IMG/VR virus record: IMGVR_UViG_3300028048_001412
Span: 109,858-173,857 of that record
Source of the DNA: a virus
Taxonomy: Duplodnaviria; Heunggongvirae; Uroviricota; Caudoviricetes
Direction: 5' to 3' (one strand)
Length of the DNA: 64,000 nucleotides
Each line of letters starts with the position of its first letter. Within the stretch, counting starts at the first letter, position 1. Shown piece by piece: positions 1 to 35,604 of the stretch. The position numbers and the translations under genes were made by a program. The notes beneath the pieces were generated by a model. That model was not told where the DNA came from. It searched no databases and was given only the letters and a program-made list of their open reading frames with translations.

Positions 1-492
1 ACTTGTATAAAACATTATGGCATAGAATATTCTTCTCAATCAAAAGAAGTAATAAATAAAATAATAGAATCAAAAAGAAAAAATGGAACATTTAATACAT
101 CAAAACCTGAAGAGAAAATTTACGAAAGATTATGTAAAGATTTCGGAAAAAGAGATATAAAAAGACAATGCAAAGAAGAACGATACCCATATATGGTTGA
201 TTTTTATATTAAATCAAAAGATCTGTTCATAGAGTGTAATTTTTCTTGGACTCATGGAAGTCATTGGTTTAATAAGGATTCAAAAGAAGACAGAAAAATC
301 TTACAAAAATGGAAAGAGAAATCTGAAAATTCAGATTTTTATAAAAATGCAATAAAGACATGGTCGAAAAAAGATGTAGAAAAGCGAGATATTGCAAATA
401 AAAATAAACTTAACTATGTAGTATTCTGGATCGAAGGTGATTATGATAAATGGAAAAATAAAAAATATCCTAATAAATTTCAAAATAAATAA
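1..492 (+). CDS. Putative homing endonuclease (paralog family A), 5'-truncated at window edge; C-terminal Vsr/DUF559-like PD-(D/E)xK nuclease domain
   Basis: Frame 1 is open from nt 1. C-terminus RYPYMVDFYIKSKDLFIECNFSWTHGSHWF ... KRDIANKNKLNYVVFW is about 80% nt-identical to the C-termini of 6598..7980, 17541..18503 and 25338..26462. The xECNFxWTHGxHW motif resembles the Vsr DGCFWHGH motif. Confidence 0.6.
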   Translation, partial: TCIKHYGIEYSSQSKEVINKIIESKRKNGTFNTSKPEEKIYERLCKDFGKRDIKRQCKEERYPYMVDFYIKSKDLFIECNFSWTHGSHWFNKDSKEDRKILQKWKEKSENSDFYKNAIKTWSKKDVEKRDIANKNKLNYVVFWIEGDYDKWKNKKYPNKFQNK

Positions 493-493
493 A

Positions 494-506
494 GTATAAT
501 ATAAAT
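494..506 (+). promoter_or_regulatory. GTATAATATAAAT phage promoter-like motif
   Basis: One instance of a motif recurring at least 13 times upstream of + strand genes. Confidence 0.4.
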
Positions 507-545
507 GGAAACACATATCAAAAAACAAAGGAGAATTGAAAAATA

Positions 546-1277
546 ATGATTAAGGAATGTAAAAACTGTTGGTATTTTACAAAATGTCAACAAAAAGACA
601 AAATGGAAACTGTATGTCTAGAATATGAACATACTTTAAAAGGATTTAAGAATTCTAATATTCCTCCTGTTTTATGGAGTAGTAGATCAATCAAAATAGA
701 TCCTAACAATAAAAAACATCAAGAATTAAAAGCATTAGTTAGTGATATGAATGAACTTTACAATAATAATAGAAATATTCTCCTTTATACTCATAATCAA
801 TACGGAGATAATTTAAATGGTTGGATGATTAAAACTCTTCAAAATTATATCTTTGCTTTTAGAAAATATCAATTCAATAATGAGAACGAAAATAGTGTAT
901 TTTATATAGATGCAGGTAAATTTAAAGAGATATGTCAATTACAAGTAGATAATAAAGAATTATTTTTATCTACTATAAATAAAATGCAAGGTTGTGAATT
1001 ATTAGGAATAGACAACATAGATAAGTTAAAAGGATTAAAGAATTTTAACTTTCAAGAGAAATTAGTAAATATATTAGAATATAGACAATACAGAAAACAT
1101 AAATCTAATATATTTACTTCACATATTCCTCCTTCATTATTAGATGCTAAAAATAATGATGAATGGAATTCATGGATAAATTATTTAACTAGATTTATTC
1201 TTAAAGATGGTATAAATGGACAATATGAAATTGAAGAAGATGGTGAAAATAGTTATAATGCAGGAGGTCAAGAATAA
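546..1277 (+). CDS. Hypothetical protein; stop overlaps the helicase start (TAATG), possible helicase-associated or loader protein
   Basis: 243-aa ORF with an AAGGAG RBS. Translational coupling to the DnaB-like gene. No recognisable motifs. Confidence 0.45.
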   Translation: MIKECKNCWYFTKCQQKDKMETVCLEYEHTLKGFKNSNIPPVLWSSRSIKIDPNNKKHQELKALVSDMNELYNNNRNILLYTHNQYGDNLNGWMIKTLQNYIFAFRKYQFNNENENSVFYIDAGKFKEICQLQVDNKELFLSTINKMQGCELLGIDNIDKLKGLKNFNFQEKLVNILEYRQYRKHKSNIFTSHIPPSLLDAKNNDEWNSWINYLTRFILKDGINGQYEIEEDGENSYNAGGQE

Positions 1278-2731
1278 TGAGTGAGATAAGAACAGAAAGA
1301 AATAATTCTGAATTAAAAATTCTTACTAAAATTATAAAAGATAAAGATTATAATATTCTTTCTGAAAATAATTTAACAAAGAATGATTTTAAAGATTATT
1401 TTGTTAAAGAAGGCCAGAAATTATATTTAATTTCAGATATAGTAGATTATATTGACTCTTATTATAAAACCTCTTCTCAAGTTCCAGACGAAACTACTAT
1501 TAAAACTAAATTTCCATTACTTGAATTAAATAATGATGATTATTCTAGTGAAAATAAAACATTTATAGATAATTTGAAGAAATTAAATAAAGATGATGAT
1601 TTAATAAATGCAATGACTCAAGCTAATAGAATTCATCAAACTAAAGGTGCAAGAGATGCTATTAGTTTTCTTCAAGGAGAATTGGAAAAGTTAGAAGGTA
1701 GAGGTTCTGAAGTTAAAGGATATGACTTAATTCAAAATGTAGATGACAGAATTAATGAATATGAAGAATTATTAAAAAATCCAAATAAAGCATTTGTAAC
1801 TACTGGATTAAAAGAATTAGATAATTGCATTAAAGGTTGGTTAAGAGATGAAGAATTAGTTCTTATTCAAGGTAGATCTGGTCAATCTAAAACATTCTTC
1901 TTATTAAAGTTTTTATGGGAAGCATTTGCTAGAGGAGAAAATGTTTTATTATTTGAACCAGAAATGTCTTCTAAAGTTATTGGATATAGATTAGACGTAT
2001 TAGCAGATGATAATCATGAGATATCTAATTTTTCTTTATTAAGAGGTGAAAGATTTATAGATGCTAATAAATATAAAGCTTGTTGTGCTAGATTAAAAGA
2101 ACATAAGAATCATTTCTATTATTTATGTCCTGATGATTTTGAAGATGGTTTAACTGTTTCTCAATTAAAAGCTTGGTGTAAAAAGAATAAAATTACTATA
2201 GTGGGAATAGATGGTATTGAAATTCCTGATATTATAGATGAAAGAAAAGGTTTCAAGGACGAAGAACACCTTCAGTTAACACATATAGCCGCTGATCTTC
2301 TTAGGATGTCTAAAACTTTAAAAGTTCCTGTTATTGTTACTACTCAAGCTAAAAGAACTGATAAGAAAGAAGAGTTAAGTATTAATACTATTGGCTCTTC
2401 CTACGGCATGGCGAGAAAATGCACCATCATGATTACAATTAAGAAAGAAGATAGAGAAGTAGAAATAAGAATTGAAAAGAGTAGAAATAGTACTGATAAT
2501 CAAGTTCTTAATTACAAGGTTGATCTCGATAAAGGTATATTTGAATGGGATGGAATGCCTACAATAGATGAACAAACAAATCAATCTATAAATAATAGAG
2601 AGGCTCAACCTATAACAGACGTAGATAAGGATAAGTCAGGAATAACAGAAGAGAATATAAAATTTACAGACGAGAATGGCAAACCTTACGGAGAAGATGT
2701 CTTTCTAGATGGAGGAAAAGGATTAGAATAA
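1277..2731 (+). CDS. DnaB-like replicative DNA helicase
   Basis: Walker A GRSGQSKT, and the RecA-fold C-terminal domain motif VPVIVTTQAKR (compare DnaB SQLNR). 484 aa. Confidence 0.7.
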   Translation: MSEIRTERNNSELKILTKIIKDKDYNILSENNLTKNDFKDYFVKEGQKLYLISDIVDYIDSYYKTSSQVPDETTIKTKFPLLELNNDDYSSENKTFIDNLKKLNKDDDLINAMTQANRIHQTKGARDAISFLQGELEKLEGRGSEVKGYDLIQNVDDRINEYEELLKNPNKAFVTTGLKELDNCIKGWLRDEELVLIQGRSGQSKTFFLLKFLWEAFARGENVLLFEPEMSSKVIGYRLDVLADDNHEISNFSLLRGERFIDANKYKACCARLKEHKNHFYYLCPDDFEDGLTVSQLKAWCKKNKITIVGIDGIEIPDIIDERKGFKDEEHLQLTHIAADLLRMSKTLKVPVIVTTQAKRTDKKEELSINTIGSSYGMARKCTIMITIKKEDREVEIRIEKSRNSTDNQVLNYKVDLDKGIFEWDGMPTIDEQTNQSINNREAQPITDVDKDKSGITEENIKFTDENGKPYGEDVFLDGGKGLE

Positions 2732-3804
2732 TGAAAATTACAGATAAATATATTTTAGAAGAAATGTTGGATTCTGTAAATTCTCCTAATGGAAGAAAAG
2801 CAATAGATACAATATTAAAAGGAAAACCATTACAATTATTCTATTGGAGTAGAAATGATGACGGAAAGAAAACTACTTATGAATTAATGGATGGACAACA
2901 AAGAACTCTATCTATTATGCAATTTTTAGACCATAAATTTAGTATTTTAGATGCAAATGGAAATACTCAATATGAAAATACTATATCAAAAGAAGATAAA
3001 GATAAGATTTTAGATTATGATTTATCAGTTTATATATGCGAAGGAACAGATCAAGAAAAATTAGAATGGTTTAATACAATAAATATAGCAGGATTAAAAT
3101 TAACAGATCAAGAATTAAGAAATGCAGTATATACAGGACCTTGGTTAACAGATGCGAAGTTACACTTTAGTAAACGAAATTGTGCCGGATATAAATTAAC
3201 TGAAAAATATTTTAACGGAGATCCAGCAAGACAAGAATTATTAGAGAAATTCTTAAAAGGAATAATAGAAAAAGAAGGATTAAAAACAATAGAAGATTAT
3301 ATGGCTCAACATAGAAATGATAAAGATGCAGATGAATTATGGCAATATGCAAACGATATAATCAATTGGATAAATAAAACTTTCACAAATTATAGAAAAA
3401 TAATGGATGGATTAGATTGGTGTCATTTATATAATAAATATCATCAAAATACATATAATACTCAAGATATAGAAAAAACAATAGATAAATTAATGAAAGA
3501 TGAAGATATAGAGAAAAAGAAAGGCATTTATGAATATGTATTAGATGATAAAAATCCATTCCGTGAGAAATATCTGAATTTGAGAGCCTTTCTAGATAAA
3601 GATCAACAAACAGCATATGAAAAACAAAAAGGAATATGTCCAATATGTGGAAAACATTTTAATAAAGATGAAATGGAAGCAGATCATATAATTCCTTGGA
3701 GTAAAGGAGGTTCAACAGATATAAATAACCTTCAAATGCTATGTAAATCTTGTAATAGACAAAAATCATCAGGAAATGCACCTAAAACTACTAAAAAGAA
3801 ATAA
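2731..3804 (+). CDS. DUF262 (ParB/Srx-like, DGQQR) + DUF1524/HNH nuclease fusion, GmrSD-like type IV restriction-like protein
   Basis: N-terminal DGQQRTLSI motif. C-terminal EADHIIPWSKGGSTDINNLQMLCKSCNRQKS HNH motif. Start overlaps the helicase stop (TAATG). Confidence 0.7.
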   Translation: MKITDKYILEEMLDSVNSPNGRKAIDTILKGKPLQLFYWSRNDDGKKTTYELMDGQQRTLSIMQFLDHKFSILDANGNTQYENTISKEDKDKILDYDLSVYICEGTDQEKLEWFNTINIAGLKLTDQELRNAVYTGPWLTDAKLHFSKRNCAGYKLTEKYFNGDPARQELLEKFLKGIIEKEGLKTIEDYMAQHRNDKDADELWQYANDIINWINKTFTNYRKIMDGLDWCHLYNKYHQNTYNTQDIEKTIDKLMKDEDIEKKKGIYEYVLDDKNPFREKYLNLRAFLDKDQQTAYEKQKGICPICGKHFNKDEMEADHIIPWSKGGSTDINNLQMLCKSCNRQKSSGNAPKTTKKK

Positions 3805-3829
3805 CTCCAATAAATTTATCATTTTTAAA

Positions 3830-3841
3830 GTATAATATAAT
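3830..3841 (+). promoter_or_regulatory. GTATAATATAAT motif 3 nt before the primase ATG
   Basis: Motif instance. No SD between the motif and the ATG at 3845. Confidence 0.35.
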
Positions 3842-3844
3842 AAG

Positions 3845-4813
3845 ATGATAAAATTCAACGTGAAAATAGAACAATTCCTAAATGATTTAAGAAGAGAAAG
3901 TGGAAAAGACATATTCAACAACGTCAAACAAAGAGGAGATGATTATCAATGTAGTTGTCCATTTCATAAAGATATAAAACCATCATTTGGAATAAATAAA
4001 GATGGAATATGGCATTGTTTTAGTTGCGGAGAAAAAGGAAATGCTATTCAATTAGTTCAGAAAATATTAGATATTGATAACTATAAAATAGCTGAAAAAT
4101 GGATAGAAGATAAATATTATAAGTTTATTCTTGAAACTCCTACTATTCCAACATTAGATTTTACATTAAAAGAAGAAAATAAAATAGAAGTTCCTAAAAA
4201 ACAATATATACCAAAAGAAGAATTAAATAAATATAAATTCTATCATCCTTATATGTATGAACGTAAATTGACTAATCAAATTATTCAAATGTTTGATATA
4301 GGTTATGATAAAGATTTTATACTAGAAAAGAAAGATCCAAATGGAAATATTAAATACGATCATTTTGGACCTGCTATTACATTTCCAGTTAAAGATATAA
4401 ATGGAAATATTTTATTTATAGCTAGAAGATGTATAAATAATAAGATATTTCATTATCCTGATGGAGCAGAAAAACCTTTATATGGTGTTTATGAATTATT
4501 TAAATATCATAAAGACGTTAAACAAATATGGGTCTGTGAATCAATTTTAGATTCGCTCTATCTATGGACTCAAAATAGAGTTGCAGTAGCATTAAACGGA
4601 TTAGGAAGTTCAGAACAATATAGAGAATTAGAATCATTAGGAATAAAAGAAATGATTTTAGCATTAGATAATGATAAAGCAGGTGAAATAGGAACCAGAG
4701 GAATAATAGATAATGTTAAAAATGTGTATTTTAGAAGAGCTATTTTACCTGAAAATCGTAAAGATATCAATGAATGTACAGAAGAAGAGATAAAAAATTT
4801 AAAAATAGTGTAA
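3845..4813 (+). CDS. DNA primase (DnaG-like: CHC2 zinc finger + Toprim)
   Basis: CSCPFHKDIKPSFGINKDGIWHCFSCGEKGNAIQLV zinc-binding motif. Toprim-like ESILDSL...ALDNDKAGE. Confidence 0.8.
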   Translation: MIKFNVKIEQFLNDLRRESGKDIFNNVKQRGDDYQCSCPFHKDIKPSFGINKDGIWHCFSCGEKGNAIQLVQKILDIDNYKIAEKWIEDKYYKFILETPTIPTLDFTLKEENKIEVPKKQYIPKEELNKYKFYHPYMYERKLTNQIIQMFDIGYDKDFILEKKDPNGNIKYDHFGPAITFPVKDINGNILFIARRCINNKIFHYPDGAEKPLYGVYELFKYHKDVKQIWVCESILDSLYLWTQNRVAVALNGLGSSEQYRELESLGIKEMILALDNDKAGEIGTRGIIDNVKNVYFRRAILPENRKDINECTEEEIKNLKIV

Positions 4814-4830
4814 ATTTTTATAAAAAATAG

Positions 4831-4842
4831 GTATAATATAAT
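4831..4842 (+). promoter_or_regulatory. GTATAATATAAT motif upstream of HD-domain gene
   Basis: Motif instance, followed by an AAGGAG RBS and the ATG at 4898. Confidence 0.4.
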
Positions 4843-4897
4843 TATATAAAAGATCTGGGTAAAAATAGCCAGGGAAACAAATAAGGAGAAAATATCA

Positions 4898-5527
4898 ATG
4901 GAAACAACTTTAACAAAAGAAATTATGAATCAAAACAAAGAGAGATTTATTTCTCTTTTACAGAAAGCCGGTGAACTAGAACCTAAAAAGAAACCAGGAA
5001 TTGATAGGTTACTTAATTGGTTAGAGGGGACCGACTTTTATTATGCTCCAGCTTCTACTAAATATCATGGCAATTATGAAGGTGGATTATGTGAGCATTC
5101 TATTAAAGTATATGATAATTTGTGTACTTTAAATACTGCTTTTAATGAAGATATGAAAGAGTATGATATAATTATATGTGCTCTTTTACATGATCTTTGT
5201 AAAATTGATTTCTATAAGAAAGTAGTTAAAGGTGCTTATAAGAAAGATGAAAATGGCGCTACTATTCAACCTAAAGTTTGGGAAGAAAAAGAAGTTTATG
5301 ATTATGGTGAGGAGAAAACTATATTAGGGCATTCTCCAAAATCAATATTTATAATTCAACATTTCTTCTTACTTTCAGATGAACAAGCAGAAGCAATATA
5401 TGCTCATATGGGTGGAATGGAATGTAGTGATCAAATGGAGAAGAATACTTATTCTAAAATATATAATAAGAATAAGTTAGCTTTCTATCTTCATTTAGCA
5501 GATTATAAACAAGCATATTATGGTTAA
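4898..5527 (+). CDS. HD-domain phosphohydrolase (YfbR-like 5'-deoxynucleotidase?)
   Basis: HD motif ICALLHDLCK with upstream His residues. 209 aa. Confidence 0.6.
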   Translation: METTLTKEIMNQNKERFISLLQKAGELEPKKKPGIDRLLNWLEGTDFYYAPASTKYHGNYEGGLCEHSIKVYDNLCTLNTAFNEDMKEYDIIICALLHDLCKIDFYKKVVKGAYKKDENGATIQPKVWEEKEVYDYGEEKTILGHSPKSIFIIQHFFLLSDEQAEAIYAHMGGMECSDQMEKNTYSKIYNKNKLAFYLHLADYKQAYYG

Positions 5528-5939
5528 AAATTAGAAGTTCAATGAACTACCATTAACCTAAAGGTATAATGGCTTCCGTTAAATAGTTCATTAGACTCAG
5601 TTTTGAGAAATCTTAACTACGTTAGAAAAATCATAACACCTTCGATTACCGGACTAGATTGAAGCTCTGTTGAATATTTTTAAGTTAGGTCGGAGTAAGA
5701 AAAGCCTTGTGAAATATTTGTAAAAAGTTTTTCTAACGTTGTCGAAGTCAAGTAGGATTTTTGATTTGGTAACAGAATCAAAATACTCATTAAGGTTTTA
5801 AGTCTTGAACCTGCTTGCAGCAAAAATCAAGACTATTTCAAAAATTATCTTTCAATTCATCTATTTGTCTAAAGACTAAATAGTTTTCTTGAAAGAAAAA
5901 ATATAAAAAATTGTATTCTAAAAAGGAGAAAAAACAGTT
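5528..5939 (+). other. 412-nt non-coding region, GC-richer than surroundings, multiple nested inverted repeats; candidate structured RNA / regulatory leader / origin
   Basis: No ORF. Hairpins include CCATTAACCTAAAGGTATAATGG, AGTCTTGA...TCAAGACT and AACGTTAGAAAA...TTTTCTAACGTT. The first 40 nt are shared with 56991-57030. Confidence 0.4.
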
Positions 5940-6521
5940 ATGAAAATAGCAATGATGAATGACAAAATGTTGCAATTAGATGATTGCAGTATTATTTTCA
6001 AGAATTTTTCAGGAAAAGCAGGAATGTACAATAAGGAAGGAGATAAGAATTTCTGTATTAAGGTAGATGAGGAATTAATATCTCAATTGGAAAACTGCAA
6101 GAACAAAGATGGTAAGGGTTGGAATGTAAAACTTTATACTCCAAAGCCAGATGATAAGTTTAAGGATAAGGATTTAACTCCATTCCACTATCTTAAGGTT
6201 AAAATTGGTAATGGTAATATTCCAGTTCAAATTGAAATTGATGGCGTTACTTCAGTTTGTCAAGATATTACTTCTTTAGATGGATTGCATATAGACCATG
6301 CAGACGTAGATTTGAGCGCATATGATGGTATCGTTAATGGAGCACCTTTTAGAGCCGCTTACTTAAAAGGAATGAAGGTATATGCAACTAGAAGTTCAAG
6401 ATTTGACACAATAGGAATGACTCCTTCAACTCCAGTATCAAATAATGCAACAGCACCAGTAACACCACAAGAAGCATTAGGTGATGACTATGAAAATTTA
6501 GACAATGTAGAGATTGTCTAG
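5940..6521 (+). CDS. Hypothetical protein; candidate single-stranded DNA-binding protein (acidic C-terminal tail)
   Basis: Strong AAAAGGAGAAAA RBS. Acidic tail EALGDDYENLDNVEIV. Followed by an intrinsic terminator. Sits in the replication module. Confidence 0.3.
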   Translation: MKIAMMNDKMLQLDDCSIIFKNFSGKAGMYNKEGDKNFCIKVDEELISQLENCKNKDGKGWNVKLYTPKPDDKFKDKDLTPFHYLKVKIGNGNIPVQIEIDGVTSVCQDITSLDGLHIDHADVDLSAYDGIVNGAPFRAAYLKGMKVYATRSSRFDTIGMTPSTPVSNNATAPVTPQEALGDDYENLDNVEIV

Positions 6522-6536
6522 TTAAAAAATAAATAA

Positions 6537-6575
6537 GAAAGAGGGATTTTAATAATCTCTCTTTCTCTTTTTATT
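6537..6575 (+). terminator. Rho-independent terminator
   Basis: GAAAGAGGGATT/AATCTCTCTTTC hairpin followed by a T-run. Confidence 0.6.
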
Positions 6576-6597
6576 TATATAAAAGGAAAATAAAATT

Positions 6598-7980
6598 TTG
6601 AAAATTAATGATGAATATATTATTAAAATATTTACTAGAAAAGATAATAGAATAGATAGCCATAAATGTAATGATAAATGGTTGAATGAAAATATAGAAA
6701 TCAAAAAATATTTAGAATCTCGATTTGATTATTTCAATGGAAAATATTCAGATGTAATAAATCTTATAAAAAATAAAGTTAAAGAATGGCCTAAATGCCC
6801 GATTTGTAAAGAATATTTAAATCATCCTGAAAATAAGCATTGTTCTTATGCTTGCGAACAAAAAGATCCTTTAGTTAATGATAAAAAGAAAAATACTTAT
6901 TTAAATAATTATGGTGTAGAACATCCTTTAAAATCAAAAGAAATAAAGAAAAAAATAAAACAGACTAATTTGCAAAAATATGGAGTAGAAAATCCTTCTC
7001 AAAACGAAGAAATTAAAGAGAAGAAAAGACAAACTAGTTTAAAAAATTATGGAGTTGATAATCCATTTAAATCTGAAGATATTAAAGAAAAAATAAAAGA
7101 AATAAATTTACAAAGATATGGATTTGAAAATGTCTTTCAAAATGAACAAATAAGACAAAAATATAAAAGCACATGTAAAGAAAAATACGGTGTAGAAAAT
7201 CCATCTCAATCTGAAAAAATAAAGAAAAAGAAAGAAAATACTAATTTAAAAAACATAGGATTCAAAAATCCATTACAATCAGAAGAAATAAAGAAAAAAG
7301 TAAAAAATACTAACTTACAAAAATACGGTGTAGAAAATCCATCTCAATTGGAAGAAATTAAGAAGAAAAAAGAAGATTCTTGTCTGAAACATTATGGAGT
7401 AAAGAGTCCATTACAATCGGAAGAAGTAAAAGAGAAAAGTAAAAAAACATGTCTTAAAAAATATGGAGTTGAAGTAGCAGCTAAATCAGAAATAGTAAAA
7501 GAGAAATTATCAAAAACTCTTTCAACTATGGAATCAAAAGAAAAACAATATAATACCAAAAAGAAAAATAATTCCTTTAATACTTCAAAACCCGAAGAAG
7601 AAATATATGAAAAATTATGTAAACAATTAGGAAAAAATAATATTTTAAGAAATTATAATAAAGATTCTAGATATCCGTTTATGGTGGATTTCTACATTAA
7701 ATCAAAAGATCTATTCATTGAATGTAATTTTAACTGGACACATGGTGAACATTGGTTTAATGAAAACTCTAAAAGCGATTTAAAAATTTCACAAAAATGG
7801 AACGAAAAATCTAAAGATTCAGATTTTTATAAAATAGCATTAAAAGTATGGACAGTAAAAGATGTAGAAAAACGAGATACTGCCAATAAAAACGGATTAA
7901 ATTACATAGTATTTTGGAAAGAATCTGATTATGAAAAGTGGATTAGTAAAGGATGTCCAAAGAAATTTCAAAATAAATAG
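6598..7980 (+). CDS. Putative homing endonuclease (family A): N-terminal Cys/His zinc finger, nine tandem ~25-aa YGVENPxQSEEIKKK repeats, C-terminal Vsr/DUF559-like nuclease; TTG start
   Basis: N-terminus KINDEYIIKIF shared with 17541 and 25338. CPICKEYLNHPENKHCSYAC zinc finger. Repeats from aa ~98-305. C-terminus DFYIKSKDLFIECNFNWTHGEHWF. Confidence 0.65.
   Translation: MKINDEYIIKIFTRKDNRIDSHKCNDKWLNENIEIKKYLESRFDYFNGKYSDVINLIKNKVKEWPKCPICKEYLNHPENKHCSYACEQKDPLVNDKKKNTYLNNYGVEHPLKSKEIKKKIKQTNLQKYGVENPSQNEEIKEKKRQTSLKNYGVDNPFKSEDIKEKIKEINLQRYGFENVFQNEQIRQKYKSTCKEKYGVENPSQSEKIKKKKENTNLKNIGFKNPLQSEEIKKKVKNTNLQKYGVENPSQLEEIKKKKEDSCLKHYGVKSPLQSEEVKEKSKKTCLKKYGVEVAAKSEIVKEKLSKTLSTMESKEKQYNTKKKNNSFNTSKPEEEIYEKLCKQLGKNNILRNYNKDSRYPFMVDFYIKSKDLFIECNFNWTHGEHWFNENSKSDLKISQKWNEKSKDSDFYKIALKVWTVKDVEKRDTANKNGLNYIVFWKESDYEKWISKGCPKKFQNK
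6889..7520 (+). repeat. Nine tandem ~75-nt coding repeats (TxLxKYGVENPxQSEEIKKKxKx)
   Basis: Periodic repeats are visible at both the protein and nucleotide level inside 6598..7980. Confidence 0.7.
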
Positions 7981-7991
7981 GGATAAAATAA

Positions 7992-8885
7992 ATGGAAAAA
8001 TTTGAAGGAATAACAAAAGAACAATTATTAGAAGAATGTTTAAATTATCCATTTCCAGGTAATACTAAATGGGAATCTAATAATCCGATATGGGATTCAT
8101 TTGTTCCTCCAAATAAAAGTCCTAGAGAAGCATGGAAAGATAGAGAATGTTTAAAAAAAGCGATAGATAATTTATATTGGATATTAGATAAATCGATAAA
8201 AGAAAATAAATATGAAGATTTTGTAGAAAAACATAGAAAAGAATTTAAAAACTTTAAAAAAGGCGATAAATTAAGATTAATGCAATTAATACTTTTTAGA
8301 TTTACTGTAGTAAAAATAGCACCTAAAGTAACAGCATTAAAAGCAACTGATATGTTAAAGATAATAGATGAAAGTGAAATTGATTTATCATCTGGAGTAT
8401 ATTGTCCAATGGCCGGATTTGGAGGAATAGTAGAAGCAAGCAAAAGATGGTTTAAAGAAAGAAAATTAGATTATGAAGATAAAATAGAAAGTTATGATAT
8501 AAATAAATCATTTGTAGATTATTATCATTTCACGGGACAAAGAGATATATTTGAAAAAGTAATAAAAACCAATAAAATATGTATAGTATGTCCACCATTT
8601 GGAAAACAATTTGAACATTGGAAAGGAACTCCTGATAAAATGTCAGATATAACATTTCTAGAATGGTATAATATAATAAAAAAACAAATAAAAGCGAAAG
8701 ATTACATAATAATTGGTCCTGAAATAGATAAAACAGGGACAGGATCTAATAAAGGATTAGATTCTCAAGGTAAAAAAATTAATGGATTATTTTCCAAAAC
8801 AATAGGAATTCAAAGATGGACAGATGATTTAGTAAAAGACGCAATAAATAATCCTGAAAAATACAAAAAAATATTAAAAAATTAA
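7992..8885 (+). CDS. Hypothetical protein; weak resemblance to gamma-class N6-adenine methyltransferase motifs
   Basis: VYCPMAGFGG (FxGxG-like) then ~68 aa later IVCPPFG (xPPF). Cys in place of D/N/S is atypical. Confidence 0.25.
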   Translation: MEKFEGITKEQLLEECLNYPFPGNTKWESNNPIWDSFVPPNKSPREAWKDRECLKKAIDNLYWILDKSIKENKYEDFVEKHRKEFKNFKKGDKLRLMQLILFRFTVVKIAPKVTALKATDMLKIIDESEIDLSSGVYCPMAGFGGIVEASKRWFKERKLDYEDKIESYDINKSFVDYYHFTGQRDIFEKVIKTNKICIVCPPFGKQFEHWKGTPDKMSDITFLEWYNIIKKQIKAKDYIIIGPEIDKTGTGSNKGLDSQGKKINGLFSKTIGIQRWTDDLVKDAINNPEKYKKILKN

Positions 8886-20443: not shown

Positions 20444-21193
20444 ATGGTAAAAGATGGAAAAATAGCATTAGTTGAAATTTTTAAATCTATTGATGGAGAA
20501 GGTTTTCACTCAGGTCAACCTACTGTTTTCATAAGAACTTTCGGATGCAATCTCCACTGCAGTTTCTGTGATACTTCATATTCTTTAAATGAAGAAGAAT
20601 ATAAGAAAACATATAATAAAGATTTATTATGGATGACAGCTGAAGAAATAGTAAATAAGTGTAATGAATTGGAAAAAGATTTTAAATATAAATCTGTTTG
20701 TTTAACAGGTGGAGAACCTTTAATAGAAGAAAATAAAGATTTTATGTTAAATCATCTTATACCATTATTATTAGATAATAAATATGCAGTGAATATAGAA
20801 ACAAATGGTGCTGTAGATTATAAACCATATAAAGATAAATTCGGAGAACCTGTAATATTAGACCCTTATGGAAATAGATATGGAGTAAGTATTATAGCAG
20901 ATTATAAACTTCCATATTCTAAAATGAATAAATTGATGAAATGGGAAAATTTATCAATTTATAGTGAATATGATTTAATTAAAATGGTAATTAGTGATGA
21001 TCCTGAAGATTGGAAAGAGTTAGAAAAAGTATGTCAATCAGGAACCAAAGCAAAGTTGTATTTAAGTCCTTGTTTTGGAGAAGTGACAATGTCAAAAATA
21101 CCGGAATTTGTAATGAATCATCCAGAATATAATATCACGGCTCAATTGCAAATCCATAAATTCTTCTGGGACAAAGATAAGATAGGAGTGTAA
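20444..21193 (+). CDS. queE: 7-carboxy-7-deazaguanine synthase (radical SAM)
   Basis: IDGEGFHSGQPTVFIRTFGCNLHCSFCDT (CxxxCxxC and the QueE-type N-terminus). Confidence 0.8.
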   Translation: MVKDGKIALVEIFKSIDGEGFHSGQPTVFIRTFGCNLHCSFCDTSYSLNEEEYKKTYNKDLLWMTAEEIVNKCNELEKDFKYKSVCLTGGEPLIEENKDFMLNHLIPLLLDNKYAVNIETNGAVDYKPYKDKFGEPVILDPYGNRYGVSIIADYKLPYSKMNKLMKWENLSIYSEYDLIKMVISDDPEDWKELEKVCQSGTKAKLYLSPCFGEVTMSKIPEFVMNHPEYNITAQLQIHKFFWDKDKIGV

Positions 21194-21197
21194 AGAA

Positions 21198-22085
21198 ATG
21201 ATGAATATAAATCAAGAATTATTAGAATTTATTAAAGACAATTATCAGAAGAAATTCGGAAGTTTAGATACATTTGAAGAAAATTATAAATTATATTGTT
21301 CTTTACCTTCTTTTAAAGCAAGTGAAAATTTTCATGAAGTATTTGGACAATTAAATGTAATAAATTCAGAAGATCCAAATGCTTTAGATAAAGAGAGTGA
21401 ATTTGTAAATAGAGAAGAAAAATTAGGAGATAATACTAAATATACTGATTATTTAGATTGTCAAAAAGAATTAAAACCTGAAATACATTGGATAATGAGA
21501 TCTGTCGCTCAATTCTATATGATAAAAGTATTTGATGCATTAAAAATAGATCAAAAAGATCCAAATATAGCAATAAATGCTTTAGGTAAAGGAACTCCAG
21601 GCAGAATTGTTAAAATGTGGAGTGGCGCTAATCCAGAAGATACATCAGAATTATTATCAGGAAGGTGGAATAAAGAACCTGCGCTATCAGTATTTCCAAA
21701 TGATGGTTCAACTACAGGAGGAGAAATAATCACTACTCCTATTACTAAAGAAGTAGATGTAGTTGCTGTTTGTAGTCACCATTTTCTTCCATTTTCAACA
21801 TTAGAACCAAATGCAAAAGCAATAATTACATATATACCACAAAAGCATTTAATTGGAATATCTAAATTGCAAAGATTTACTAAATGGGCTAGTGCAAGAG
21901 GATGGTTACAAGAAGATTTAACAACTTATTTAGGAACAACAATTAAAAGAATAAGTGAATCTGAAGATGTAAAAGTAGAACTGATCAATTTAGTTCATGG
22001 ATGTGAAAAGTTTAGAGGTGCTTATTCTAAAAATGGTAATTTAACAACTTATTATAAATCAGGAGTGTTCAAAGATGTCAAGTAA
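21198..22085 (+). CDS. folE: GTP cyclohydrolase I with ~100-aa N-terminal extension
   Basis: GTPGRIVKMW, VCSHHFLPF (CEHH zinc motif), TYIPQKHLIGISKLQRF, HGCEKFRG. Confidence 0.85.
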   Translation: MMNINQELLEFIKDNYQKKFGSLDTFEENYKLYCSLPSFKASENFHEVFGQLNVINSEDPNALDKESEFVNREEKLGDNTKYTDYLDCQKELKPEIHWIMRSVAQFYMIKVFDALKIDQKDPNIAINALGKGTPGRIVKMWSGANPEDTSELLSGRWNKEPALSVFPNDGSTTGGEIITTPITKEVDVVAVCSHHFLPFSTLEPNAKAIITYIPQKHLIGISKLQRFTKWASARGWLQEDLTTYLGTTIKRISESEDVKVELINLVHGCEKFRGAYSKNGNLTTYYKSGVFKDVK

Positions 22086-22959
22086 AGAATATTTTTCTAA
22101 AGAGTATCAAAAAGATCTTTATGAATATATGGCTGATAGAACGTGGCTTAAAAAAGGTAAAGAAATGCATTTACCTGAAAAAAAATTAAAACGTAAGTTT
22201 GATATGATAAATTTTGAAAAATATCCTGGTGTAAATGAGGAGAGAATTTGGAATGTTAAAGAAAATACTAAAGAACAATATACTAATCCTAAATTCTTAC
22301 AAAATTATAAAGCTGCAAATAAAGAACAATTAAAATTATTAAAAAAAGCTGATAAAAAAGATATTCTATTATTATCTCTATGTGCAAATAATAAACCTTA
22401 TTCTGATAATGCTACTATAAGATGTGTAAAAAACATTGCTGATAAAAATAATATGGATTATGCTATATTATCAAAAACGGTTTGGTTTATAGAACCTTTT
22501 GATTTTTCAGTTAGACCTCCCGCATTATGTTATAATGAACCTCATGATTGGTTCTATTATAGTATAGCATTTAAGAAATATTGTGATAAAAAGAAATTAA
22601 AAGAAAAATTCGAAGAATTTAATAATAGTTGGTTTCCTGGATTTGAAATGCCTCAATATATGGTAGAAGAAATATCTAAACAATATAAAGCAATAGTGAT
22701 TTTTCATAATGGTGGGGCTAATGAATATTTAAGAAGATTTGGGAGTGAACATTATAAGCCATTTGAACCTAGTTGTCCAGTTTATAATATAGATACTTCT
22801 AAAGAAATATATATGAAAGAATTAAGGCCTATATTTCATTCAGGTGGATTATGCCATCAAAGATATTATACCAGTAAAAAAGCAACTAATGAAATAGCAA
22901 ATATTTGTAAAAATATAAGAAAAGATGTTATTCCTCAAAAAAATCTTATGAATAAGTAA
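22075..22959 (+). CDS. Hypothetical protein embedded in 7-deazaguanine cluster (overlaps folE by 11 nt)
   Basis: 294-aa ORF with no recognisable motif. Translationally coupled to folE. Confidence 0.5.
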   Translation: MSSKEYFSKEYQKDLYEYMADRTWLKKGKEMHLPEKKLKRKFDMINFEKYPGVNEERIWNVKENTKEQYTNPKFLQNYKAANKEQLKLLKKADKKDILLLSLCANNKPYSDNATIRCVKNIADKNNMDYAILSKTVWFIEPFDFSVRPPALCYNEPHDWFYYSIAFKKYCDKKKLKEKFEEFNNSWFPGFEMPQYMVEEISKQYKAIVIFHNGGANEYLRRFGSEHYKPFEPSCPVYNIDTSKEIYMKELRPIFHSGGLCHQRYYTSKKATNEIANICKNIRKDVIPQKNLMNK

Positions 22960-22978
22960 TCAGTAAAGGAGAATATAA

Positions 22979-23668
22979 ATGAAACCAGATCTAAAAATAA
23001 AGAATAGTGATTTTAAATACTTTGAGATAAATCCAGAGAAATATAGTAGAGAATATGTAATGTTATTAGCTCAGGATTATCATAAAAATCCCAATAAAGA
23101 AATTCCAAAAGCTGATTATAAGATGCTGGACAATGGAGCTGCCGAAGGAGAACAACTATCTAATAAAGATTTGATAGAAGTAATTAAATTAGTAAAGCCG
23201 GATGAAATTATATATCCTGATATAATGGGAGATAAAGATGCTACTATAAAATCATCTACTGAATTTTATAATGAATTACCTGATGATTTAAAGAATTCTT
23301 TATCTAAACTAGGTGTAATTCATGGAAAAACATTTAAAGAATTTCAAGAATGTGCTGAATATTATATGGAAAGCGGTAAAATTAAAGTAGATGTAATAGG
23401 AGTTCCTAAATATTCTGTATATTCTTTAAAGAATATGTTTGTTAGAGTTAAATTAGCAAAATGGTTGAATGAGAAATATCCAAATGTAAAAATTCATTTT
23501 TTAGGAATGAATGAACCTTTTTATATTATAAAACAAGCAATAGAAAAAGGAATGATTATAAGAAGTATAGATAGTATTGTTCCTTATCAATGGGAAAAAG
23601 AAAATTCAAGTATTCCATTTGATTATTATTTAAGAGATCCAGATATTTCTTATAATGAATTAAAGTAG
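22979..23668 (+). CDS. Hypothetical protein; weak TGT/DpdA-like (DNA-guanine transglycosylase) resemblance
   Basis: MLDNGAAEG (compare TGT DSGGFQ) and IRSIDSIVPYQW (compare TGT MFDCVLPTR). 229 aa is short for TGT. Genomic context supports the assignment. Confidence 0.3.
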   Translation: MKPDLKIKNSDFKYFEINPEKYSREYVMLLAQDYHKNPNKEIPKADYKMLDNGAAEGEQLSNKDLIEVIKLVKPDEIIYPDIMGDKDATIKSSTEFYNELPDDLKNSLSKLGVIHGKTFKEFQECAEYYMESGKIKVDVIGVPKYSVYSLKNMFVRVKLAKWLNEKYPNVKIHFLGMNEPFYIIKQAIEKGMIIRSIDSIVPYQWEKENSSIPFDYYLRDPDISYNELK

Positions 23669-23676
23669 AAATATAA

Positions 23677-23688
23677 GTATAATATAAT
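23677..23688 (+). promoter_or_regulatory. GTATAATATAAT motif
   Basis: Motif instance upstream of the mazG-like gene. Confidence 0.4.
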
Positions 23689-23719
23689 TAGAGAATATTT
23701 TCAGGAGGTTTTAGTTAAT

Positions 23720-24073
23720 ATGACAATACAAGAATATCAAAAGTATGTAAAAGAAGGTGCTAGTAAAGATTATACTAAAGAATTAGCCATAATTGGAGTT
23801 ATGGGAGAATTAGGTGAGCTTTCAGATGTAGTGAAAAAAGAGGCAATTTTTAAGGATATGTCTAAATTTATAGAAAAATATGGCATGTCAGTAGAAGACA
23901 AAATGACTTCAGAGATAGGTGACATTATGTGGCAAGTATTTAATTTAGCCAATATGTATAATATAGATATGGAAAAAATATTAGAACATAATGTAGAAAA
24001 ATTAAATAAAAGACATGGTGGAGCAGGTAAAACAGCAATTGATGGTGGAATAAGATTAAATCCAAACGAATAA
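23720..24073 (+). CDS. MazG-like nucleoside triphosphate pyrophosphohydrolase
   Basis: ELGELSDVVKKE ... EIGDIMWQVFNLANMYNID. Confidence 0.6.
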   Translation: MTIQEYQKYVKEGASKDYTKELAIIGVMGELGELSDVVKKEAIFKDMSKFIEKYGMSVEDKMTSEIGDIMWQVFNLANMYNIDMEKILEHNVEKLNKRHGGAGKTAIDGGIRLNPNE

Positions 24074-24092
24074 AAATTTAAAGGAGAAAATA

Positions 24093-24539
24093 ATGAGATT
24101 AATTTTAATTGGACCTGATTGTTGTGGGAAATCAACCTTAGCAAAAAAATTATCAAAACAGTTAAATGTTCCTATAATAAAAGGAATAAGAGGTGATTTT
24201 GATCAAATAAATAGACAAAAAGAACCATGTATATTTGATAGAATTCCTAATATAGATGAAAGAATCTATACTAATTCTAAAATAACGGATAAAGATATAG
24301 AACCTTTAAAAGATAATTGTATTGTTCTTTATATAGAAACTCCTTTATCAGTATTAAAAGAAAGATTTGAAATTAGAGGAGATGAAGAAGTTAATTTAGA
24401 TGATATCCAAAGAGTAAAAGAAAATTATGAAAAATGGCTATTTATGGAAAATAGAATAAATTTAATGATGATCACTTATGATTATACTAAAAAAGATATA
24501 GATAGAATAATTGAAGCATTTAATAAATATGGTAAATAA
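24093..24539 (+). CDS. P-loop nucleotide/nucleoside kinase (dNMP kinase or polynucleotide-kinase-like)
   Basis: N-terminal MRLILIGPDCCGKSTLAKKL Walker A. Confidence 0.5.
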   Translation: MRLILIGPDCCGKSTLAKKLSKQLNVPIIKGIRGDFDQINRQKEPCIFDRIPNIDERIYTNSKITDKDIEPLKDNCIVLYIETPLSVLKERFEIRGDEEVNLDDIQRVKENYEKWLFMENRINLMMITYDYTKKDIDRIIEAFNKYGK

Positions 24540-24552
24540 GAGGTGAAAAGAT

Positions 24553-25314
24553 ATGAAAGCAATAGTTAGTCTTTCTGGCGGTAGAGATTCTGCAACTTGT
24601 TTAGGAGTGGCTGTAGAAAAATATGGAAAAGAAAATGTATTTGCTATGGGATTTGAATATGGAAGTACTCACCCACAAGAATTAGAAGCAGCACAAAAAA
24701 TAGCTGATTATTATGGCGTTCCTTATCAAATAGTTAAAATAGATCCAAGTATATTTGAAGGTTCAGGTTGTTCTATGTTAGAATCAGAAGGATTATCTCC
24801 TGAAAAAGGAAAAACATATGAGCAATTACAAGCAGAAAATGAAGGAAAAGTAGCAACTTATGTTCCAGCAAGAAATACATTATTTTCAGCATATGTATTA
24901 GCAAAAGCAGAATCATTAGCCCAAAAATATAATGATGAAGTAACTATTATTTTAGGTCAACACGCAGATGATTCAGGATTTTATGTAGATGAAAATGGAG
25001 TAGAACATTTAGATTATACTAAATCAGCATATCCAGATACTTCAGTAGAATTTGTAGAAGCTTTTGCAAAAGTAGCTGAAATTAGTTCGGTTGGAAAAGT
25101 AAAATATTGGTCACCATTTATAAAGAATCATAAATATGAATTATTACAAATAGGTTCAAAATTAAAGAAACCTGTTCCATATAATTTATGTATATCTTGT
25201 TATAAACCAGAATTAGGTGAAGATGGTAAATATCATGAGTGCGGATTATGTGCAACCTGCTTGGACACTTTGAAAGCATTAAAGAAAGCAGGATTACCAG
25301 AAAAATTAAATTAA
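24553..25314 (+). CDS. queC: 7-cyano-7-deazaguanine (preQ0) synthase
   Basis: PP-loop SLSGGRDS. C-terminal zinc-cluster cysteines (CISC...C, CGLCATC). Confidence 0.8.
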   Translation: MKAIVSLSGGRDSATCLGVAVEKYGKENVFAMGFEYGSTHPQELEAAQKIADYYGVPYQIVKIDPSIFEGSGCSMLESEGLSPEKGKTYEQLQAENEGKVATYVPARNTLFSAYVLAKAESLAQKYNDEVTIILGQHADDSGFYVDENGVEHLDYTKSAYPDTSVEFVEAFAKVAEISSVGKVKYWSPFIKNHKYELLQIGSKLKKPVPYNLCISCYKPELGEDGKYHECGLCATCLDTLKALKKAGLPEKLN

Positions 25315-25337: not shown

Positions 25338-26462
25338 TTGAAAATTAATGATAAATACATCTTGAAAATTTTTATTGGAGAGAATCAAAGAGTTAATGGT
25401 TGGAGATGTTCTTATAATTGGATAAATGAAAATCCAGAAATCAAAGAATATCTAGAGACTAGATTTAATTATTTCAATGGAAAATACGGAGATGTAGTTA
25501 GATTAATAAGAGATGGATTTGATGAATGGCCTAAATGTAAAACATGTAATGAATTTTTAAAAGAACCATTTACTCAAGATAAACAACCTTCATATCATAT
25601 TTATTGCAGCAATAAATGTAAGAATATAAATGAAGAAAAGAAACAGAAATCTATAAATACTTGTTTGGAAAAATACGGAACTCCAGTTTCTTCTCAATCC
25701 GAAATAGTTAAAGAAAAAGAGAGAAATACTATAAATTCTAGAACTGAAGAAGAGAAAAATAAAATAACTTCTAGAGCTAGAAAAACTTATATTAAAAAAT
25801 ATGGAGTAAATTGGATTTCAAAATCAAAGGAATTTAAAGATAAATTCAAAGAGACTTGGGATAATAAATCAGAAGAAGAATTACAAGACATAAAAAATAA
25901 AAAAGAAAATACTTGCTTAGAAAAATACGGCGTGAAATATTATTTTGAAACAGAAGAATTTCAAGAAAAATCAAAACAAACTATTCTAGATAAATACGGA
26001 GTAGAGTACACGCATCAATGCAAAGAAATATTAGATAAAGTTAATGAAACTAAACATAAAAATGGAACATTTAATACATCGAGGCCTGAAGAAGAATTTT
26101 ATAAATATCTTTTAAATAATTTTTCGGAAAATGATGTAAAAAGACAATATTATAAAGATTCTAGATATCCATTCAGATGTGATTTCTATATTAAATCTTT
26201 GGATTTATTTATAGAGTTAAATCTTTCTTGGGTTCATGGTGGACATTGGTTTAATAAAAATTCAAAAGAAGATTTAAAAATATTAGATAAATGGAAAAAT
26301 AAAAATACAGATTATTATAATGCGGCTATAAATACATGGACGAAGAGAGATTTATTAAAAAAGAAAACAGCAATAAAAAATAAGATTAATTATCTTGTTT
26401 TCTGGACTGAAAAAGAAATAAATAATTTAATAAAAGGAGAAAATAAATTATGTATAGTTTAA
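25338..26462 (+). CDS. Putative homing endonuclease (family A, ~4 degenerate repeats); TTG start; inserted between queC and queD
   Basis: N-terminus KINDKYILKIF. CKTCNEFL zinc finger. C-terminus RYPFRCDFYIKSLDLFIELNLSWVHGGHWF. Confidence 0.6.
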   Translation: MKINDKYILKIFIGENQRVNGWRCSYNWINENPEIKEYLETRFNYFNGKYGDVVRLIRDGFDEWPKCKTCNEFLKEPFTQDKQPSYHIYCSNKCKNINEEKKQKSINTCLEKYGTPVSSQSEIVKEKERNTINSRTEEEKNKITSRARKTYIKKYGVNWISKSKEFKDKFKETWDNKSEEELQDIKNKKENTCLEKYGVKYYFETEEFQEKSKQTILDKYGVEYTHQCKEILDKVNETKHKNGTFNTSRPEEEFYKYLLNNFSENDVKRQYYKDSRYPFRCDFYIKSLDLFIELNLSWVHGGHWFNKNSKEDLKILDKWKNKNTDYYNAAINTWTKRDLLKKKTAIKNKINYLVFWTEKEINNLIKGENKLCIV

Positions 26463-34211: not shown

Positions 34212-34661
34212 ATGAATTTTGATCAATTAATTTATCTTTTAATTAGTGGATATTTAGGATGTTTCATAACCGGAATATTATTTTTCATAATATTAAATTT
34301 TGAATTATATATTCTCAATGGTTTATTTAAGAAAGTGAATAATTTAAATTCTTTAGCTAAAAAGAATTGGGATGAAATAGGACAAGTAATAACTCTTATT
34401 CAGAAAGATCCTAAACACATTAATTCATATTCAGAAGAAGAATTTAAAAAAGTATGTAAACAAATAGAAGAAATATCATTATTTAGTATTTATATTTGGA
34501 CAGTTCAAATACCATTATTAATGAATAAGATAAAGAAATGGTTAAATTCCACTCAAAATACAATAAATGTTATAAATATGTTTCTAAAATTAATAACATT
34601 TGGTAAAATAAAATTTGAAACTAGGACTAATTTTAAAGGAGGAAACACATATGGAAATTAA
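34212..34661 (+). CDS. Hypothetical membrane protein
   Basis: Two predicted TM stretches. Confidence 0.45.
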   Translation: MNFDQLIYLLISGYLGCFITGILFFIILNFELYILNGLFKKVNNLNSLAKKNWDEIGQVITLIQKDPKHINSYSEEEFKKVCKQIEEISLFSIYIWTVQIPLLMNKIKKWLNSTQNTINVINMFLKLITFGKIKFETRTNFKGGNTYGN

Positions 34662-35604
34662 GAAATTTGTAGATATTGAGAATTTAAGAGAAAAAGATAC
34701 TTTATTGAACGGATTGGTTACTAGAGGAAGAAATGATTTAAATTTCAGACCTGGCAATCAGATTTCAATAACTACTAAAGTAGATGGTTCAAACGCTTCT
34801 GTTGGATATAATGCAGAAACAGATAAATTAGAATGTTGGAGTAGAAGATTGCCATTAAAGTTTGATAATACTTTAAATGGATTTTTTGAATATGTTCAAT
34901 TATTAGATGTTTCTCCTTTCAAAAATCATCCTACATATAGAGTATTTGGTGAATGGATGCCATTTCAAAGAACAAATAAAATAACATATGATGAAAAGAT
35001 GAATCATAGATGGATAATTTATTCTATTTATGATATAAAAGAAGAAAAATGGTTAACTCAAGATATTGTTAAATCTTTCTGTGAAGAATCAGGATTAGAA
35101 TATGTAGAAGTTTTATATGAAGGTCCATTTATTTCATGGGATCATTGTAGAGAATTTATGAATAAATCTAAATACGGTGATAAACAAGAAGGAATAGTAA
35201 TTAGAAATATGGACGGTATTTATAATCCTGATGTTAAATATCCTTGGATTCTTAAAATAGTAGGAGAAGAATTTTCAGAAATAATGAAACATTCTAGAAA
35301 ACCTAAAGATCCTGAAGAAGAAAGAAGAAAACAAGGAGCTAAAGGAAAAGCCGCTGAAATATTATCTACTGTAATTACTAAAAATAGAATTGAAAAAGCA
35401 ATTACTAAATTCCAAGAAGATGGAATATTACCAAAACAATTATCTGATAAAGATATGGGAAATATAGCAAAAATACTTCCAAAAGCAATATATGAAGATA
35501 TATTGAAAGAAGAACCTGAAACTTTACAAGCATCTGGAGAATATGGCCCAAAAGTATTAGGACAAATGGTAATGGCTATAGTAAGACCTATGATATTAGG
35601 ATAA
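34651..35604 (+). CDS. ATP-dependent nucleic-acid ligase, RNA ligase 2-like size and motifs
   Basis: Motif I TTKVDGSNASVGY (KxDG). EGIVIRN (motif IV). KYPWILKIVGEEF (motif V). The likely start at 34651 follows a GGAGG RBS. The track ORF began at 34615. Confidence 0.55.
   Translation: MEIKKFVDIENLREKDTLLNGLVTRGRNDLNFRPGNQISITTKVDGSNASVGYNAETDKLECWSRRLPLKFDNTLNGFFEYVQLLDVSPFKNHPTYRVFGEWMPFQRTNKITYDEKMNHRWIIYSIYDIKEEKWLTQDIVKSFCEESGLEYVEVLYEGPFISWDHCREFMNKSKYGDKQEGIVIRNMDGIYNPDVKYPWILKIVGEEFSEIMKHSRKPKDPEEERRKQGAKGKAAEILSTVITKNRIEKAITKFQEDGILPKQLSDKDMGNIAKILPKAIYEDILKEEPETLQASGEYGPKVLGQMVMAIVRPMILG

Follow-up and report, generated by a model that had tools for sequence, protein, structure and literature searches.

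A methylase-less member of a methylase-linked DUF262-HNH nuclease family between the helicase and primase genes of an AT-rich phage

Viruses carry free-standing HNH homing endonucleases, such as the T4 Mob proteins and I-HmuI of SPO1/SP82, and also nucleases that destroy unmodified DNA while their own hypermodified DNA is immune, such as T4 EndoII/EndoIV with hydroxymethylcytosine (hmC) and the restriction-modification (R-M) enzymes of chloroviruses. In the enzymes GmrSD, BrxU and SspE, a ParB/Srx-like N-terminal domain with a DGQQR motif is followed by a His-Me nuclease, and in BrxU the binding and hydrolysis of nucleotide by DUF262 are prerequisite for DNA cleavage (PMC8565348). Here we analysed a 64,000-nucleotide (nt) stretch of a Caudoviricetes genome (hereafter the window; positions 109,858 to 173,857 of IMG/VR record IMGVR_UViG_3300028048_001412), in which a gene for a DUF262-HNH nuclease of 357 amino acids (aa) lies between the genes of the replicative helicase and the primase.

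The closest described systems are the modules of an EcoRI-family methylase and a DUF262-HNH nuclease covered by the PADLOC model PDLC03418. The window nuclease shares with them homology from residue 22, the DGQQR motif, the middle domain and the Cys4 HNH domain, and differs in lacking an adjacent methylase gene (the helicase gene is upstream), in its shortened N-terminus and in its place within a phage replication operon. To GmrSD, BrxU and SspE it is alike in domain order and in fold, whereas it has an HNH (PF01844) zinc ribbon in place of DUF1524, is about 200 residues shorter, comes from a methylase-linked family and has an incomplete DUF262 nucleotide site, from which the N-terminal loop has gone. 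Like free-standing homing endonucleases, it is encoded by a lone gene between essential genes, is patchily present in relatives and has copies in unrelated neighbourhoods; unlike them, it derives from a restriction-enzyme family and contains a ParB-like domain. Neither NUMOD nor any further DNA-binding module typical of homing enzymes was detected in it, and its homing is putative. With T4 EndoII/EndoIV and the chlorovirus enzymes it would share early expression beside hypermodification genes (here FolE, QueE and QueC), but the protein families are unrelated, and both deazaguanine protection of this phage and sensitivity of the nuclease to deazaguanine are putative, DpdA being undetected in the window. 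We hold it probable, with moderate confidence, that the gene is a horizontally acquired orphan restriction (R) gene of the EcoRI-family-methylase/DUF262-HNH module, encoding an active mobile HNH endonuclease in inter-genome conflict.

The nuclease family and its methylase partner

In the nuclease, PF03235 (GmrSD_N/DUF262) matched residues 25-134 (E=3e-11; profile positions 32-198 of 199) and PF01844 matched the C-terminal part (Table 1), both far above chance. The HNH domain is of the classical type with a CxxC...CxxC zinc ribbon (C303, C306, C338, C341), D318-H319, N333 and N342, and an alignment of 43 sequences, the window copy among them, showed no variation at any of these eight residues. 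DGQQR occupies residues 54-58, with D54, G55, Q56, Q57 and R58 invariant across the family, and the helix equivalent to RLFDS (..AIDT..) is kept as well. An earlier note, made from the letters alone, had read the protein as DUF262 with DGQQR joined to DUF1524/HNH. The DGQQR and HNH parts of that reading stand, the DUF262 match is partial, and DUF1524 (PF07510) gave no Pfam match in the nuclease, where only HNH, HNH_5 and HNH_4 were found. The DGQQR and HNH residues, whose loss that note had watched for, are both kept; it is the other conserved DUF262 motif that has gone. The exact 357-aa protein was found on two independent contigs, so the truncated form is not an assembly artefact.

In the defence libraries, the best match was PDLC03418 'REase_II' (Type II restriction endonuclease, REase; E=1.7e-104), in which nuclease residues 24-346 aligned with profile positions 52-370 of 372 and the first 51 positions were unmatched. 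The PADLOC Type IV model mREase_IV reached E=2e-4 with the HNH part only, and Menshen NsnA was also far weaker than PDLC03418. More than 7,700 homologues, mostly of 374 aa and about 55% identical to the window nuclease, were present in the protein database, from sources including Ruminococcus, Blautia, Lactococcus, Veillonella and Paenibacillus, and an exhaustive search gave 317 family clusters at 50% identity (E<1e-30). In every bacterial locus opened (R. bromii L003-L008, L. cremoris L009-L013, L014-L017 and L024-L026), an EcoRI-family adenine methyltransferase gene (PF13651) was directly upstream of the nuclease gene and often overlapped it. The pair is annotated as gp07/gp08 in Flavobacterium phage vB_FspS_laban6-1, occurs in the phage records MT835503 and MT838873, and is carried by plasmids of Firmicutes, Proteobacteria, Actinobacteria and Bacteroidota, e.g. 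Lactiplantibacillus pentosus NZ_CP016495.1. Among IMG/VR loci, a same-strand methylase was found at 78 of 80, and the remaining two end before the upstream region, so that all 78 informative loci are paired. One representative, P0158 (688 aa), is a fusion of methylase, DUF262 and HNH. This linkage in bacteria, plasmids and phages, together with the fusion, indicates that members of the family serve as the nuclease in a two-gene R-M module and are not stand-alone modification-dependent enzymes.

Homology to the family spans residue 22 to the C-terminus of the window nuclease, which is 38-58% identical to methylase-linked members and 64-89% identical to its methylase-less sisters P0002 and P0001. 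The window copy and its two closest relatives are the three methylase-less exceptions among about 100 loci examined. The literature searched yielded neither a characterised member nor a recognition sequence, and no named REBASE enzyme behind PDLC03418 was found there; as far as found, the family is thus large, tightly linked to EcoRI-type methylases and uncharacterised.

The predicted structures had a mean confidence (pLDDT) of 74 for P0001, the closest full-length homologue (89% identical), and 72 for the window nuclease, whose N-domain had lower AlphaFold confidence than that of P0001. By fold, the nearest solved structures to P0001 were BrxU and SspE. The GmrSD-like architecture of the earlier note thus holds at the superfamily level. 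Membership of the GmrSD/BrxU/SspE family founders on DUF1524, size and methylase linkage, and the note's Type IV assignment gives way to a methylase-linked family with a Type II best match, whose likeness to BrxU and SspE is at the level of fold.

In the R. bromii loci (L003-L008, at about 6441-8011), the methylase is intact at 496 aa in some assemblies and split or shortened in others (408+88, 384+88 or 446 aa), the nuclease gene being unchanged; the C-terminal repeat region of the methylase may be subject to phase variation or be decaying.

Insertion at the helicase-primase junction and the N-terminal loop

The sequence bears out the three open reading frames (ORFs) at 546-1277, 1277-2731 and 2731-3804 proposed before, with their TAATG one-base overlaps at 1275-1279 (loader/helicase) and 2729-2733 (helicase/nuclease), and the DnaB-like helicase is confirmed by its PF03796 and phrog_19 matches. 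One-base overlaps were found at 4 of the 68 junctions in the window and overlaps of any kind at 11 of 68; they are a general trait of a tightly packed genome and nothing special to the nuclease junction.

Neither a megablast of window positions 1-8000 against GenBank phages nor an IMG/VR scan with the window helicase found a relative, and helicase relatives were obtained from the protein database. In L018-L021 the helicase is 64% identical to that of the window, the loader-like ORF 62% and the primase 61%, with synteny kept, and GCA_016648615.1 (helicase 45% identical) has the same loader-helicase-primase synteny. The primase start overlaps the helicase stop in all of these, as TAATG in L019-L021 and GCA_016648615.1, and no DUF262-HNH homologue was present within 9-13 kb flanks in L018-L021 or GCA_016648615.1. 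The cultured distant relatives Dp-1, MS1 and phiCTP1 likewise have the helicase followed by the primase. Because relatives have the helicase directly overlapped by the primase, the nuclease gene is an insertion at an ancestral overlap of helicase stop and primase start. In L019, these helicase tail codons (DGG..) stand just ahead of the primase start that overlaps them, suggesting that the coupled start site with its Shine-Dalgarno-like sequence is ancestral, first served the primase and was then taken over by the nuclease cassette.

In the window, a 40-nt spacer parts the primase from the upstream genes, and no such spacer precedes the primase in L018-L021 or GCA_016648615.1. Within it, a copy of the promoter-like motif described below is bracketed by a 14-nt inverted repeat (I5: 3812-3825 / 3842-3855). 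The window primase is 61% identical to that of L019 and its residue 3 aligns to L019 residue 8, so about 5-7 N-terminal residues have been altered or lost. Compared with relatives, a few residues are lacking at the helicase tail as well as at the primase N-terminus.

The closest copy, in L001, has 87% nt identity confined to window positions 2793-3791, with unrelated, AT-rich and methylase-less flanks, and the flanks of the next closest (L023, 64% aa identity) are likewise unrelated, AT-rich and methylase-less. When L001 and L023 were compared with the window by tblastx, the flanks gave low-complexity noise but no real homology, and no target-site duplications or flanking repeats of note were seen around the cassette. 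Since the closest copies sit in such neighbourhoods, the gene travels as a single-gene cassette. The earlier view that the gene is not an isolated insertion is contradicted by this 87%-identical copy and by the direct overlap of helicase and primase in related phages.

At the N-terminus, the family segment reads 'IKVKDvF..G..D.GddGVfAY.GkL.IRPxYQREFvY..eQ', with R, P, Y, Q, R, E and Y at least 90% conserved among 42 homologues. In the window nuclease, 21 residues (MKITDKYILEEMLDSVNSPNG) stand in for about 50 family residues, and RPxYQREFxY is gone. Homology to L001/P0001 begins at nt 2793/2794 at both the nucleotide and the protein level. Residue ~50 of full-length representatives aligns to window residue ~22, so that at least ~28 additional residues precede the shared region, and overall the window nuclease is ~34 residues shorter N-terminally than the family. 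No part of the 64 kb window encodes the missing segment. Local alignments of the first 63 nt of the ORF with the 5' ends of the ancestral primase gene and of the full-length nuclease gene scored within the range expected by chance (null fractions 0.13-0.95), so neither similarity is significant.

By its position (~45 residues before DGQQR) and by fold, RPxYQREFxY is likely the counterpart of the ParB Q-x-R ('PxQPR') loop, with DGQQR corresponding to GERR. An hhalign of the family profile with B. subtilis Spo0J placed IRPxYQREF on LRPNPYQPR and DGQQR on GERR, at a non-significant E=0.72. In M. xanthus ParB, Q52 and R54 of the loop and E93 of GERR are catalytic or phosphate-contacting residues (10.1101/2021.05.05.442810). 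Because these loop residues are catalytic and the equivalent loop is deleted, the window nuclease is predicted by analogy to be unable to hydrolyse nucleoside triphosphate (NTP) in the usual way.

The gene has nevertheless stayed under constraint. Its 1,074-nt ORF is intact in a genome of 25.6% GC content, and the ratio of nonsynonymous to synonymous substitution rates (dN/dS) against L001 was 0.095 at dS 0.65, being 0.10 in the remainder of DUF262, 0.10 in the middle domain and 0.05 in the HNH domain. When substitutions were polarised with P0002 and the family consensus, 10 were derived in the window lineage and 13 in that of full-length P0001. With low dN/dS in all regions and no excess of derived changes, there is no sign of relaxed constraint, and the nuclease is under strong purifying selection.

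Self-protection and the explanations weighed

A tblastn of the 64 kb window with four partner methylases gave no match, and the canonical amino-methyltransferase motif IV, (D/N/S)PP(Y/F/W), is absent from all of its ORFs. The window does hold genes for FolE, a QueE-like enzyme and QueC, which makes self-protection by 7-deazaguanine plausible; 7-deazaguanines shield phage DNA from restriction enzymes (PMC6884629). MazG-like pyrophosphatase and nucleotide kinase genes lie inside the same cluster. The earlier note had taken the phage DNA itself to be deazaguanine-modified; the pathway genes agree with this, while the modification is presumed from them, because DpdA was undetected in the window. 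The unannotated ORFs 22075-22959 and 22979-23668 are possibly divergent DpdA or QueD.

An ORF at 7992-8885 (297 aa), placed between the DNA polymerase gene and one of the homing-endonuclease genes, had no match in Pfam, PHROG, NCBIfam or PDB but has 172 homologues on phage-size contigs. Invariant among them are 'YxPMAGFGGI', which resembles motif I of S-adenosylmethionine (SAM) methyltransferases, and 'CPPF', which resembles motif IV with Cys in place of D/N/S. Judged by these motifs, the ORF may encode a novel DNA- or nucleotide-modifying enzyme, which could bear on self-protection.

The comparisons above show that the cassette landed exactly at the overlap of helicase stop and primase start of an AT-rich phage (~284 kb contig) and took the coupled start; the primase was moved 40 nt away and now follows a promoter-like motif of its own. 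The methylase partner has been lost, as in the two closest relatives, and the RPxYQREFxY loop in the window copy only. For the function we propose the following. Made early with loader and helicase, the protein would act as a sequence-specific HNH DNA endonuclease that cuts unprotected DNA, namely the host chromosome and/or co-infecting relatives, including their uninterrupted helicase-primase junction, while the phage's own genome would be spared by 7-deazaguanine replacing G or by some unlinked protector encoded beyond the window. Deletion of the loop has most likely abolished ParB-like NTP hydrolysis and would thereby uncouple the nuclease from NTP control of the BrxU/SspE type. In a more specific form, the phage would have kept only the nuclease half, exchanged methylation for genome-wide 7-deazaguanine and removed the NTP-hydrolysis loop, and the unregulated nuclease, timed with the helicase, would attack host DNA and unmodified rivals; this form we consider unlikely.

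Several points weigh against the orphan R gene reading. The ~220 kb of phage genome outside the window may encode a methylase. DpdA, the DNA transglycosylase, was undetected in the window, ORFs 22075-22959 and 22979-23668 having been checked with Pfam, PHROGs, NCBIfam and PDB sequences; phage DpdA3 and DpdA4 evade ordinary profile searches and are detectable only by HHpred (PMC10516641). Palindrome counts gave no clear avoided site, with CATG, GATC and GTAC moderately depleted and nothing absent. The purifying-selection signal sums both lineages, so the deletion is not dated by dN/dS. By analogy with BrxU, deletion of the loop could inactivate the nuclease instead of freeing it, and no activity data were found for any family member in the literature searched.

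One alternative is that the protein is an inactivated remnant or non-catalytic derivative, a harmless DNA-binding protein or decaying gene tolerated because it preserves the coupling at the junction. A motif nearly invariant in the 43-sequence alignment (at least 90%) is deleted in the window copy, BrxU cleavage depends on its NTPase, the modelled N-domain has lower confidence than that of the sister, and lethality would be expected of an active short-site nuclease that has no methylase. However, the ORF has remained open at this GC content, every catalytic and zinc residue and DGQQR are kept, dN/dS is 0.05-0.10 in each region with no excess of derived changes over the full-length sister, and the two nearest relatives are complete though methylase-less; we judge a remnant quite unlikely. 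Survival without a methylase would be accounted for by a long target site if the gene were a purely selfish homing-type endonuclease, one that cuts the uninterrupted helicase-primase junction of related phages in co-infection at a single long target, spreads into it through repair and brings the phage no benefit. Its seat between two conserved essential genes, the relatives without it, its occurrence as a single gene in unrelated contexts, the several other homing-type nuclease genes in the genome and the primase intein of L018 all agree with such an element. The pairing of the family with methylases at every informative viral locus points instead to short, frequent sites that need genome-wide protection, the flanks showed neither repeats nor signs of co-conversion, and decaying homing genes would usually show a looser dN/dS than the 0.09 found here. 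A purely selfish element is somewhat unlikely, and it overlaps with the explanation that we prefer.

A GmrSD/BrxU-like Type IV enzyme attacking the modified DNA of hosts or competing phages would likewise explain a copy without an adjacent methylase, and it would suit DUF262 with DGQQR before a His-Me nuclease as well as the BrxU and SspE folds nearest to the modelled sister. Against it, DUF1524 is missing, the N-terminal DUF262 motif is deleted, the Type IV model scored E=2e-4 (HNH part) versus 1.7e-104 for the Type II model, and homologues of ~38-58% identity are co-encoded, overlapping or fused with an adenine methylase, a pairing that could not coexist with an enzyme cleaving DNA because it bears that very methyl mark. 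A Type IV enzyme is therefore very unlikely. The earlier note had also offered a replication function. The protein might, for instance, be an accessory nuclease of the replisome or of recombination that makes nicks or ends for recombination-dependent replication. Co-transcription and translational coupling with the helicase, and the nearby genes for primase, SSB, RecA and SbcCD-like proteins, fit such a role, but relatives with the same replication module lack the gene and replicate without it, the coupling is inherited from the primase, and the same gene is found outside replication modules; we regard this as extremely improbable. On balance, the nuclease is most likely a weapon, a homing element or both, a GmrSD-type function and a replication role being poorly supported.

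If the orphan R gene is active, it would be a natural restriction nuclease parted from its methylase and re-used by a virus, for which DNA hypermodification may substitute as immunity. The window copy is also a naturally occurring deletion in the ParB/Srx-type nucleotide switch governing DUF262 nucleases such as BrxU, SspE and GmrSD, and comparison with the 89%-identical full-length sister would directly probe the role of that switch. If inactive or merely selfish, it is an ordinary mobile HNH gene among phage replication genes.

Other features of the window

Table 1. Coordinates of features in the window
Feature	Position	Strand	Remarks
Promoter-like motif AAGTATAATATAA	492-504	+	upstream of loader-helicase-nuclease gene run
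ORF, probable degenerate helicase loader	546-1277	+	243 aa; stop overlaps helicase start
DnaB-like replicative helicase	1277-2731	+	PF03796 E=1.8e-15, phrog_19 E=1.3e-43, TIGR03600 E=2.3e-21
Shine-Dalgarno-like GGAGGAAAAGGA	2711-2722	+	inside helicase 3' end, 8 nt before ATG at 2731
Orphan nuclease, 357 aa	2731-3804	+	partial DUF262 (ParB/Srx-like), helical middle domain, Zn-ribbon HNH
5' segment of nuclease gene	2731-2793	+	21 codons without detectable homology; replaces ~50 family N-terminal codons
Retained DUF262/GmrSD_N part	2803-3132	+	PF03235; contains DGQQR at 2890-2904
HNH nuclease domain with Cys4 zinc ribbon	3637-3771	+	PF01844 E=4e-18, residues 303-347
Spacer, 40 nt	3805-3844	+	parts primase from upstream genes; motif copy 3828-3840
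DnaG-type primase	3845-4813	+	PF01807 and PF13155
QueE-like radical SAM enzyme	20444-21193		7-deazaguanine cluster 20444-25314
FolE, ~160-aa N-terminal extension	21198-22085		7-deazaguanine cluster
Unannotated ORFs	22075-22959 and 22979-23668		in 7-deazaguanine cluster
QueC	24553-25314		7-deazaguanine cluster

The window has a GC content of 25.6% and its base composition differs strongly between the strands (A 43.6%, T 30.8%, G 16.3%, C 9.3%), and all real-looking genes of at least 100 aa are on the + strand. A protein identical to the window helicase was found on a contig of 284,018 bp. The ORF at 546-1277 had no match in Pfam, PHROG or NCBIfam; it is 61-62% identical to the 224-aa ORF that precedes the helicase gene in both L018 and L019, and its counterpart in GCA_016648615.1 has a weak Bac_DnaA match. 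It carries a degenerate Walker A 'LLYTHNQYGDNLNG' and keeps a Walker B-like 'LLGIDNID', and its product is probably a degenerate loader of the DnaC/DnaA type.

The motif (A/T)(A/G)GTATAATATAA was found in 10 copies in the window versus 2.7 expected. All of them occupy intergenic + strand sequence in the first 36 kb (at 492, 3828, 4829, 8885, 16966, 20401, 23675, 28290, 33698 and 35622). We take it for a putative promoter. Two copies end just 2-4 nt before start codons (3845, 8900), which suggests leaderless transcripts.

The genome is crowded with selfish nuclease genes. Three paralogous DUF7487 genes at 1-492 (partial), 6598-7980 and 25338-26462 have PHROG 'homing endonuclease' matches; they share tandem ~33-aa repeats and a common C-terminal domain and are scattered among core replication and nucleotide-metabolism genes. 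Two more HNH ORFs lie at 41177-42097 and 57435-58271, and over 32 aa the HNH of the former shares 53% identity with the HNH of the nuclease family. In L018 (3450-5501), the primase reaches 683 aa owing to an intein-like insert of ~325 aa (CFDDSVEV...ILTHN|C) inside the CHC2 zinc-finger motif, a further selfish element in the same replication module.

Genes for SPFH/Band-7 (flotillin-like) proteins at 31268-32740, 49754-50608 and 60198-61352, a microbial-type poly-ADP-ribose glycohydrolase (PARG) at 40063-40869 and an RNA ligase at 34615-35604 make up an unusual accessory set for a phage.

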